Positions 1 to 2,827 of a stretch of 2,827 nucleotides of DNA are shown here, piece after piece. The position numbers and the translations under genes are program-made. The DNA is taken from the sequence record FN394996.1. One strand, 5' to 3'. The notes beneath the pieces are model-generated. The model worked only from the letters and a program-made list of their open reading frames with translations, was not told the origin of the DNA and searched no databases. The DNA is from Enterobacteria phage CUS-3. Position 1 is the stretch's first letter. Every line of letters starts with the position of its first letter.

Positions 1-438
1 ATGGCGCGCCCAACAAAGTATCAAGAGGCGTATGCCGAACAGGCACGCAAACTGTGCTTGCTGGGCTACACCGATGCAGAGCTTGCTGATTTCTTCGAAG
101 TCAGTGAGTCAACTATTAACAAGTGGAAGCTTGATTATCCTGAGTTTTCGGAGTCCATAAAAAAGGGTAAGGCCGTCGCTGATGCAGAAGTTAGTGATCG
201 TCTTTATCAACGCGCTATGGGCTTCGTGGCTCCAGATATCGATATTCGTGTTATTGAAAACAGAATTGTCGAAACTCCGCTTGAGAAGTATTACCCGCCT
301 GATACAACCGCTGCCATTTTCTGGCTTAAGAACCGACAGAAGGATAAATGGCGCGACAAGGTTGATCACGAGCTAACAGGCAAAGACGGCGGCGCAATTC
401 AGATTGAAACATCACCGATGAGCACTCTATTCGGAAAA
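1..438 (+). CDS. Phage terminase small subunit (TerS), Sf6/P22-like packaging module; 146 codons visible from the ATG at 1, stop codon hidden in the masked block
   Basis: Frame 1 ORF starting at ATG 1. Translation MARPTKYQEAYAEQARKLCLLGYTDAELADFFEVSESTINKWK... contains an N-terminal helix-turn-helix-like segment (GYTDAELADFFEVSESTINKWK), an AIFWLKNRQKDKWRDK stretch typical of small terminase subunits, and a C-terminal tail GKDGGAIQIETSPMSTLFGK that I recall as shared with the Sf6-type small terminase. The ORF track extends it to 543 only because masked N codons translate as X; the in-frame TGA at 541-543 is not evidence of the true stop. Confidence 0.75.
64..129 (+). other. Predicted helix-turn-helix DNA-binding motif within TerS (residues about 22-43)
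   Basis: Sequence GYTDAELADFFEVSESTINKWK has the short helix / turn (S-E-S) / recognition helix pattern of HTH motifs; small terminases bind pac DNA through an N-terminal HTH. Pattern-based only. Confidence 0.45.
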
Positions 439-538: not shown

Positions 539-1762
539 TCTGAGCCATGTGTAAAATATTATGATGGCATTCTGTATCTGACGACCAGGGGGACATTAAG
601 TACTCAACCCGGTAGTTCATTGCACAGAAGCTCTGATTTAGGTACATCATGGAATTCTCTTCGCTTCCCAAATAATGTTCATCACTCAAACCTTCCTTTT
701 GCCAAAGTTGGCGATGAGCTGATTATTTTTGGCAGTGAGCGCGCATTTGGTGAGTGGGAAGGAGGAGAACCTGATAACCGTTATGCAGGAAATTATCCAA
801 GAACATTTATGACCAGAGTTAACGTCAATGAGTGGAGTCTGGATAATGTAGAGTGGGTTAATGTTACTGATCAGATTTATCAGGGCGGAATAGTTAACTC
901 TGCGGTTGGTGTTGGTTCAGTTTGTATCAAAGACAACTGGCTGTACTACATTTTCGGTGGGGAAGACTTTCTAAACCCATGGAGCATAGGGGATAACAAC
1001 AGAAAATATCCTTATGTTCACGATGGTCACNNNNNNNNNNNNNNNNNNNNNNNNNNNNNNNNNNNNNNNNNNNNNNNNNNNNNNNNNNNNNNNNNNNNNN
1101 NNNNNNNNNNNNNNNNNNNNNNNNNNNNNNNNNNNNNNNNNNNNNNNNNNNNNNNNNNNNNNNNNNNNNNNNNNNNNNNNNNNNNNNNNNNNNNNNNNNN
1201 NNNNNNNNNNNNNNNNNNNNNNNNNNNNNNNNNNNNNNNNNNNNNNNNNNNNNNNNNNNNNNNNNNNNNNNNNNNNNNNNNNNNNNNNNNNNNNNNNNNN
1301 NNNNNNNNNNNNNNNNNNNNNAGCGGCGGTGAAACAACGTCTTCAGCAGATGGCGCAATGATAACGTTGCATGGTTCCGGAAGCAGTACTCCACGTCGCG
1401 CGGTATATAACGCACTCGAACATCTTTTTGAGAACGGAGATGTTAAACCTTATCTTGATAATGTAAATGCTCTTGGTGGTCCGGGAAACAGGTTCTCGAC
1501 AGTTTATCTTGGCTCCAATCCTGTGGTTACCAGTGACGGAACATTAAAGACAGAGGCGGTCTCTCCTGACGAAGCATTGCTGGATGCCTGGGGTGACGTC
1601 AGGTATATCGCTTATAAATGGCTGAACGCTGTCGCTATAAAGGGGGAAGAAGGGGCGAGGATACATCATGGTGTAATCGCGCAGCAACTTCGTGATGTTC
1701 TTATTTCTCACGGACTCATGGAAGAAGAAAGCACAACATGCCGCTATGCCTTTCTTTGCTAT
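539..1762 (+). CDS. Tailspike / tail fibre protein, endosialidase-like (sialidase beta-propeller segment plus C-terminal intramolecular chaperone domain); partial, with start and stop both in masked sequence
   Basis: Frame 2 has no stop from 422 to 1762 across visible sequence. Visible segment 539-1030 translates to ...YYDGILYLTTRGTLSTQPGSSLHRSSDLGTSWNSLRFPNN...GGEPDNRYAGNYPRTFMTRVNVNEWSLDNVEWVNVTDQIYQGGIVNSAVGVGSVCIKDNWLYYIFGGEDFLNPWSIGDNNRKYPYVHDGH, with an Asp-box. Visible segment 1322-1762 translates to ...NRFSTVYLGSNPVVTSDGTLKTEAVSPDEALLDAWGDVRYIAYKWLNAVAIKGEEGARIHHGVIAQQLRDVLISHGLMEEE..., matching the S-D-x-x-L-K autocleavage and HHG-IAQ motifs of the peptidase S74-type chaperone domain found at the C-terminus of endosialidases and other tail fibres. 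The 291-nt masked block keeps the frame (97 codons). This ORF is absent from the supplied ORF track, apparently because it has no in-window stop. Confidence 0.7.
629..652 (+). other. Asp-box (bacterial neuraminidase repeat) motif SSDLGTSW
   Basis: Codons 629-652 in frame 2 encode S-S-D-L-G-T-S-W, fitting the S-x-D-x-G-x-x-W Asp-box consensus of sialidase-type beta-propellers. Confidence 0.6.
1031..1321. other. Masked or undetermined sequence (291 N) inside the tailspike-like ORF
   Basis: 291 N, which is 97 codons; frame 2 is the coding frame on both sides. Confidence 1.
1532..1762 (+). other. C-terminal intramolecular chaperone (peptidase S74-like) domain, N-terminal part, with predicted autoproteolytic Ser-Asp site at codons 1532-1534 / 1535-1537
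   Basis: TSDGTLKTE (Ser 1532-1534, Asp 1535-1537) followed by DVRYIAYKWLNAV and RIHHGVIAQQL (1658-1690) matches the conserved order of motifs in tail-fibre chaperone domains. About 76 residues of the domain are visible; the rest and the stop codon are masked. Confidence 0.6.
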
Positions 1763-2179
1763 NNNNNNNNNNNNNNNNNNNNNNNNNNNNNNNNNNNNNN
1801 NNNNNNNNNNNNNNNNNNNNNNNNNNNNNNNNNNNNNNNNNNNNNNNNNNNNNNNNNNNNNNNNNNNNNNNNNNNNNNNNNNNNNNNNNNNNNNNNNNNN
1901 NNNNNNNNNNNNNNNNNNNNNNNNNNNNNNNNNNNNNNNNNNNNNNNNNNNNNNNNNNNNNNNNNNNNNNNNNNNNNNNNNNNNNNNNNNNNNNNNNNNN
2001 NNNNNNNNNNNNNNNNNNNNNNNNNNNNNNNNNNNNNNNNNNNNNNNNNNNNNNNNNNNNNNNNNNNNNNNNNNNNNNNNNNNNNNNNNNNNNNNNNNNN
2101 NNNNNNNNNNNNNNNNNNNNNNNNNNNNNNNNNNNNNNNNNNNNNNNNNNNNNNNNNNNNNNNNNNNNNNNNNNNNNNN
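1763..2179. other. Masked or undetermined sequence (417 N) spanning the tailspike 3' end, the intergenic region and the 5' region of the acetyltransferase gene
   Basis: 417 N, which is 139 codons. Hides the tailspike stop, any promoter or ribosome-binding site, and the place where the neuO heptanucleotide repeat tract would be expected. Confidence 1.
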
Positions 2180-2827
2180 ATGTCGTTTTCCGTTGATGAT
2201 AATGGATCAGGTAATATTTTTGTATGTGGAGATCTTGTAAATAGCAAAGAGAATAAAGTTCAGTTCAATGGAAACAATAACAAACTTATTATAGAAGATG
2301 ATGTTGAGTGTCGATGGCTTACCGTAATATTTAGGGGTGATAATAATTACGTAAGAATACATAAAAACAGTAAGATTAAAGGTGATATTGTCGCAACAAA
2401 AGGTTCAAAAGTTATTATCGGTAGAAGAACGACAATAGGTGCAGGTTTTGAAGTCGTCACTGATAAGTGCAATGTTACAATTGGCCATGACTGCATGATA
2501 GCAAGAGATGTTATTTTGCGTGCATCAGATGGGCATCCTATATTTGATATTCATAGCAAAAAAAGGATTAATTGGGCAAAAGATATCATTATATCTAGTT
2601 ACGTATGGGTAGGGAGAAATGTCTCTATAATGAAAGGGGTATCTGTTGGAAGCGGATCTGTCATTGGGTATGGGAGTATTGTAACTAAAGATGTGCCATC
2701 TATGTGTGCAGCAGCCGGTAATCCAGCAAAAATAATAAAAAGAAATATAATATGGGCAAGAACGGATAAAGCGGAGCTAATTAGTGATGACAAGAGATGC
2801 TCCAGCTATCATGCGAAGCTCACGCAA
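2180..2827 (+). CDS. neuO: Hexapeptide-repeat (left-handed beta-helix) acetyltransferase, NeuO-like polysialic acid O-acetyltransferase; 3' partial (no stop before window end); true start may lie upstream in masked sequence
   Basis: Frame 2 ORF from ATG 2180 to the window end, 216 codons with no stop. Translation MSFSVDDNGSGNIFVCGDLVNSKENKVQFNGNNNKLIIEDD...IGAGFEVVTDKCNVTIGHDCMIARDVILRASDGHPIFD...SSYVWVGRNVSIMKGVSVGSGSVIGYGSIVTKDVPSMCAAAGNPAKIIKRNIIW shows imperfect hexapeptide repeats and the C-terminal GNPAK segment typical of this acyltransferase family. Counting from Met 2180, His falls at residue 119 (codon 2534-2536) and Trp at 143 (codon 2606-2608), which matches my recollection of the residues reported as catalytically critical in NeuO. 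The gene is strongly AT-rich and lies directly downstream of an endosialidase-like tailspike, as neuO does in CUS-3. Confidence 0.65.
   Translation, partial: MSFSVDDNGSGNIFVCGDLVNSKENKVQFNGNNNKLIIEDDVECRWLTVIFRGDNNYVRIHKNSKIKGDIVATKGSKVIIGRRTTIGAGFEVVTDKCNVTIGHDCMIARDVILRASDGHPIFDIHSKKRINWAKDIIISSYVWVGRNVSIMKGVSVGSGSVIGYGSIVTKDVPSMCAAAGNPAKIIKRNIIWARTDKAELISDDKRCSSYHAKLTQ

Follow-up and report, generated by a model that had tools for sequence, protein, structure and literature searches.

An apparently repeat-less neuO 5′ end in a composite record of prophage CUS-3, from which the AAGACTC tract was probably removed

NeuO is a polysialic acid O-acetyltransferase encoded by the P22-like prophage CUS-3 of Escherichia coli K1. 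The gene has already been published, as have the structure of the protein, the heptanucleotide switch and the part that neuO plays in O-acetylation of the capsule and in resistance to K1 phage. The enzyme is a trimer with a left-handed β-helix that moves acetyl from acetyl-CoA to the polysialic acid capsule. The related OatWY of Neisseria meningitidis W-135/Y is chromosomal rather than prophage-borne. In structure OatWY, likewise a left-handed β-helix sialate O-acetyltransferase, is the nearest relative of NeuO, and the active-site residues are conserved (PMC3046976), although the similarity of the two sequences is only distant. In NeuO, the residues His119 and Trp143 (numbering without heptads) lie at the active site; they correspond to the published His147 and Trp171, and the proposed acetyl-CoA tunnel is flanked by this His and Trp, no acetyl-CoA complex having been crystallised (PMC3046976). 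Slipped-strand mispairing, which is the published switching mechanism (PMC3046976, PMC13001214, PMC9659370), changes the number of AAGACTC copies in neuO. Only copy numbers that are multiples of three keep the frame (ON), other numbers give short peptides (OFF), and every three copies add one more RLKTQDS heptad and increase the catalytic efficiency. This ON rule, the position of the tract in neuO and a linear rise of the catalytic efficiency with the number of heptads have been reported (PMC3046976). The phenotypes described include resistance to K1 phages and neutrophils, as well as regulation by DsdC (PMC3046976, PMC13001214, PMC9659370). Protection against K1 phage has been attributed to NeuO (PMC9659370), and K1 capsule O-acetylation was shown to switch on and off in culture in other strains (PMC13001214, PMC9659370). 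A laboratory construct without the 5′ VNTR, NeuO+0, served in the biochemical work of Bergfeld et al. 2007 and Schulz et al. 2011 (PMC3046976). In the present work we take from the cited papers how the enzyme catalyses its reaction, how its activity rises with the heptads and what is said of the capsule and of phage resistance, while the identity of the gene, the position of the tract, the length of the block in front of the gene and the ON/OFF frame logic were established here.

The window, which is the whole stretch of 2,827 nt that was analysed, ended in an uninterrupted open frame of 216 codons from an ATG (2180-2827). Its last codon was the final sense codon, Gln216, and the TAA stop lay directly beyond the window end; in the locus of CUS-3 RS218 the neuO stop codon was seen at 4646-4648. 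A first-pass annotation made from the letters alone had read this frame as a NeuO-like capsule O-acetyltransferase gene, and our results agreed with it. The best match among all PDB sequences was 3JQY, deposited as “polysialic acid O-acetyltransferase” (E 1.6e-142). Residues 2-216 of the translation aligned with its residues 30-244, and a single substitution, I13V, was seen among the 215 aligned positions. The second match was 2WLC, also deposited as polysialic acid O-acetyltransferase and which we take to be meningococcal OatWY (E 3.2e-31, residues 25-208), so that the proposed comparison of the protein with NeuO and OatWY returned these two enzymes in this order. The left-handed β-helix that had been suggested was supported by a Pfam Hexapep match (PF00132, 42.5 bits at a cut-off of 27) and by the near-identical chain with a solved structure of this fold. 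Residue 119 of the translation was His and residue 143 was Trp, as had been noted before, and these numbers are exactly those published for the heptad-less NeuO (PMC3046976). At the DNA level, the gene was 99.4-100% identical to 18 CUS-3 neuO records and the CUS-3 genome. The gene body showed 100% identity with the IMT5155 genome as well as with 8 of the CUS-3 records, and it had a G+C content of 36% against 42-48% for the phage fragments, which fits the expectation for a cargo gene. As judged from these matches, 2180-2827 is neuO of the P22-like prophage CUS-3 of E. coli K1.

The first-pass annotation had also named an unrelated hexapeptide acyltransferase of the LacA/Maa or WbbJ type as the outcome that would overturn its reading. 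Such an enzyme would have the generic Hexapep domain in common with NeuO, and LacA and Maa structures were indeed found in the PDB sequence search at E 1e-15 to 1e-19. However, both NeuO and 2WLC were matched far more strongly than these structures, and the gene order in the full loci (siaK1 - neuO - int - attL/tRNA-Arg, argW) is that of CUS-3. The match to 3JQY refuted a LacA/Maa-type or WbbJ-type identity, to which we give next to no probability. Compared with neuO of CUS-3 from RS218 (CP000711; PDB 3JQY), the gene in the window is the same gene, with 99.5% DNA identity over 645 nt, the same position between siaK1 and int/attL and the same catalytic His and Trp. The two differ at the 5′ end: the RS218 gene has a 19-copy tract with TT after the ATG, whereas the window record has TC after the ATG and no tract. 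In this respect the 216-aa translation of the window corresponds to the engineered NeuO+0, with the same His119/Trp143 numbering. NeuO+0, however, is a laboratory construct, whereas the repeat-less form in the window is a property of the sequence record and most probably not of the strain.

Three runs of N, at 439-538 (100), 1031-1321 (291) and 1763-2179 (417), divided the window into four readable segments, and the first-pass annotation had treated the last of these runs as a masked block. Megablast of 2180-2827 against phage records gave 19 matches, all with at least 99.4% identity. Eighteen of the matches were records that are each exactly 2827 bp long and that come from as many different E. 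coli K1 strains. These sister records (FN3949xx/FN3950xx) were titled [quoted passage not shown], and the CDS fragments annotated in them were terminase at 1-438, siaK1 at 539-1030 and 1322-1762, and neuO at 2180->2827. The Ns belong to the composite typing record as it was deposited and are not a mask added in the scan, because the sister records in the database have N blocks at coordinates identical to those of the window. The closest sister record to the whole window was FN394997 (99.7%), and no sister record was byte-identical to it. We presume that Mordhorst et al. 2009 (Environ Microbiol 11:3154) is the source paper of these records, the link being drawn from the strain names and the topic.

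The composite nature of the record was also seen in its upstream parts (Table 1). The terminase fragment had no match in the 6-7 kb siaK1-neuO-int loci of CUS-3 RS218 and IMT5155, and the 100-N run behind it is an arbitrary spacer between genes that are not neighbours, terminase and siaK1. No Pfam match at E<=0.001 was found for this fragment. Its DNA was 93-99% identical to regions in Klebsiella, Salmonella and other Escherichia phages, which were annotated variously as hypothetical protein, HNH endonuclease or terminase. The two siaK1 fragments matched End_beta_propel (PF12217, 1.6e-104), End_tail_spike (PF12219, 7.2e-33) and Peptidase_S74 (PF13884, 1.2e-11), in line with the earlier placement of neuO downstream of the tailspike. 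They mapped to 2224-2715 and 3007-3447 of the CUS-3 RS218 locus, with a gap of 291 nt that equals the N run between them.

Table 1. Features of the 2,827-nt window
Feature	Position	Strand	Basis
Small terminase subunit gene, 5′ fragment	1..438	+	Sister-record annotation; not adjacent to siaK1 in the phage
siaK1 endosialidase tailspike, two fragments	539-1030 + 1322-1762	+	Pfam; 291 N between
417-N placeholder of exact length	1763..2179	.	Stands for unsequenced DNA: the last 264 nt of siaK1 including the stop and the 153-nt siaK1-neuO intergenic region, with the presumed neuO promoter and ribosome-binding site
True neuO start codon ATG	2180..2182	+	Matches the ATG in the IMT5155, CUS-3 RS218 and phiv205-1 loci
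TC between start codon and tract site	2183..2184	+	Alignment to tract-bearing genomes
neuO body, left-handed β-helix polysialic acid O-acetyltransferase	2185..2827	+	3JQY match, Hexapep, DNA identity

The earlier observation that no AAGACTC is visible was correct, with 0 copies on either strand of the window. This absence alone carries no statistical weight, because chance would be expected to yield no more than 0.25 copies in 2.8 kb. Comparison with tract-bearing genomes revealed where the repeats belong. CUS-3 RS218 reads ...ctaatATG TT (AAGACTC)19 G TTT TCC GTT..., phiv205-1 and the complete genome of APEC IMT5155 read ATG TC (AAGACTC)18 G TTT TCC, and the window reads ATG TC G TTT TCC. The equivalents of the start ATG were located at 3651-3653 of the IMT5155 locus, 3865-3867 of the CUS-3 RS218 locus and 3872-3874 of the phiv205-1 locus, and the ATG at 2180 aligned with the codon at which the full-length CDS is annotated to begin in both IMT5155 and phiv205-1. 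Since the tract-bearing genomes have ATG, then TC or TT, then the tract and then G TTT, the alignment identifies the ATG at 2180 as the true start codon of neuO and places the tract 3′ of it, two bases after the ATG, between 2184 and 2185 of the window.

The bases between the ATG and the tract were polymorphic. TT was found in CUS-3 RS218 (3868-3869 of the locus), and the TC variant was found in the window, IMT5155 (3654-3655 of the locus), phiv205-1 and two further genomes. The change from TT to TC turns codon 2 from Leu to Ser. With TC, the repeat register also reaches two bases further (TC|AAGACTC), and slippage might be slightly affected by this.

The first-pass annotation had offered two explanations for the missing repeats, the first of which placed the tract and the true start codon inside 1763-2179, with the ATG at 2180 being internal or artificial. 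The sole point in favour of this explanation is that the block directly precedes neuO and cannot be read. In CUS-3 RS218, phiv205-1 and IMT5155, exactly 417 nt lie between the siaK1 fragment, which ends at 1762 of the window, and the ATG. In all three, 264 nt of this stretch belong to siaK1 and 153 nt are intergenic, and no AAGACTC was found on either strand of it. Because the 417 nt are fully taken by the siaK1 3′ end and the intergenic DNA, there is no room for a tract, and what the block represents is the 3′ end of siaK1 together with the promoter region, not the repeats. The alignment of the ATG with annotated full-length starts and the location of the tract 3′ of the ATG in sequenced genomes also speak against a tract inside the block. 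By these alignments the explanation is already refuted for the related genomes, and for the window itself we give it next to no probability. The check that had been recommended, to unmask 1763-2179 and count the repeats, would have turned up none, as the tract lies 3′ of the ATG, between 2184 and 2185; the corresponding stretch in the three unmasked references holds no AAGACTC. It could even have led to a wrong rejection of NeuO, since a 5′ region with no heptanucleotide tract and with a plain promoter and ribosome-binding site before the ATG had been named beforehand as grounds for rejection. The intergenic region of IMT5155 was plain and A+T-rich, with AGGA 8 nt upstream of the ATG, and a promoter scan of it gave 9 sites against 5.7 +/- 2.6 expected, which was not significant.

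The second explanation was an unusual 5′ end with zero repeats. Its descriptive part held, since the record does show such an end; its biological part, that the strain truly has a natural zero-repeat allele, very probably does not hold. Such an allele would be phase-locked ON and would encode a 216-aa minimal enzyme of low catalytic efficiency, a state unreported among natural isolates. The record as written is in frame (ATG TC G TTT) with its neuO CDS annotated as 5′-complete, and NeuO without heptads, the engineered NeuO+0, was active in vitro (PMC3046976), so that a zero-repeat allele is not biologically impossible. However, all 18 sister records, from 18 different strains, were alike in their length and in their repeat-less 5′ end. 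One of these strains is IMT5155. Its record, FN394994 (strain IMT_5155), matched the complete IMT5155 genome at 100% identity in each of the three segments that were mapped, and it reads ATGTCG where the genome has 18 AAGACTC copies; the genome was assembled later from a same-named strain, so that some drift of the copy number is possible, although a change from 0 to 18 is not plausible.

A survey of complete genomes pointed in the same direction. A 371-nt query, in which the native 153 nt upstream of neuO were joined to ATG TC and the gene body, was searched in 5,426 complete E. coli genomes and matched 176 of them. All 60 matches listed out of these 176 came in two pieces, with an insert of 35-371 nt between the flanks. 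In 59 of the 60 listed genomes the insert was an exact multiple of 7, and the copy number ranged from 5 to 53 and was never 0. For MS7163 (H78) the estimate of 21 copies equalled the published value. These numbers are in line with the 2-93 copies described for natural neuO (PMC3046976) and the 3-53 copies across 64 complete genomes, with 21 in MS7163 (PMC13001214). The zero-repeat junction itself was searched with a 52-nt query in which each half is too short to seed on a repeat-bearing allele. In a local control this query found a synthetic zero-repeat sequence and missed an 18-copy allele. Neither its TC nor its TT variant had a match in the 5,426 complete E. coli genomes.

The tract-less sister records, the mismatch with the IMT5155 genome, the 60 listed genomes and the negative junction search thus lead to the reading that the tract was removed during preparation of the record. 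The best explanation is therefore that the variable (AAGACTC)n tract at the 5′ end of neuO was taken out of a composite genotyping record (probability about 0.93), and a natural zero-repeat allele is highly improbable. We infer that the depositors removed the tract deliberately, which is a sensible step for a genotype alignment. A survey published in 2026 likewise removed the tract from its BLAST query (PMC13001214). The neuO puzzle has little weight for biology, and it is an artefact of the assembly of a database record. Since the record is a concatenate from which the tract was removed without a mark, nothing about the organism can be read from the “missing tract” or “unusual 5′ end”. The lesson is one of method: in a concatenated typing record the N runs are placeholders and a hypervariable tract may have been taken out unmarked, so that composite records are unsuitable for inferring junctions, starts or repeats in a scan.

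The rule that multiples of three are ON, which had also been stated beforehand, was borne out both by frame modelling and by CDS annotation. When AAGACTC copies were re-inserted in the window allele, 0, 3 and 6 copies gave proteins of 216, 223 and 230 aa, and 1, 2, 4 or 5 copies gave peptides of 7-31 aa. Each three copies added one heptad, SRLKTQD/RLKTQDS. Among the 60 listed genomes, a full-length acyltransferase CDS (PGAP) was annotated in 20 of the 20 genomes with a copy number divisible by three and in 0 of the 40 others. Two apparent exceptions were examined and rejected. In one genome with 53 copies (H70), a 202-aa CDS was called from an internal GTG and is not full-length NeuO. In the other, E. 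coli 729_270514_x_12 (H41), only a pseudogene fragment was annotated, and the tract contained a degenerate stretch.

This degenerate stretch was 22 nt long (AAGATCTCGAGACTCAAGTTGC) and lay among 29 perfect copies at 753-979 of the locus, so that the tract length was not a multiple of 7. It could be real decay or a long-read assembly error. Two sister isolates of the same series (H40 and H42) had 19 and 14 perfect copies.

Further observations concern the neighbourhood of neuO and its annotation. The siaK1 fragments (539-1762) were 99.7-99.8% identical to tail fibre genes of the Escherichia phages vB_EcoP_ZX5, vB_EcoP-720R6 and Phi05_2388 B. Neither the terminase segment nor the neuO segment of the query was matched in these phages, which suggests that different phage backbones have the endosialidase module in common. 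An IS66-family transposase gene was found directly upstream of the tailspike gene in IMT5155 (locus 1-3497) and phiv205-1 (locus 1-3718), and the IMT5155 tailspike was annotated as a pseudogene with its N-terminus missing. neuO remains intact in a prophage that is decaying, and decay of CUS-3 has been noted in the literature too (PMC9659370). In some complete genomes (H28, H50, H64 and H75) the neuO 5′ region matched two or three places, which is consistent with second, possibly truncated, neuO copies of the kind described for strain CE10 (PMC9659370). In phiv205-1 (MN340231), a full-length neuO with 18 repeats (ON) at 3872-4648 of the locus was misannotated as “general stress protein”.
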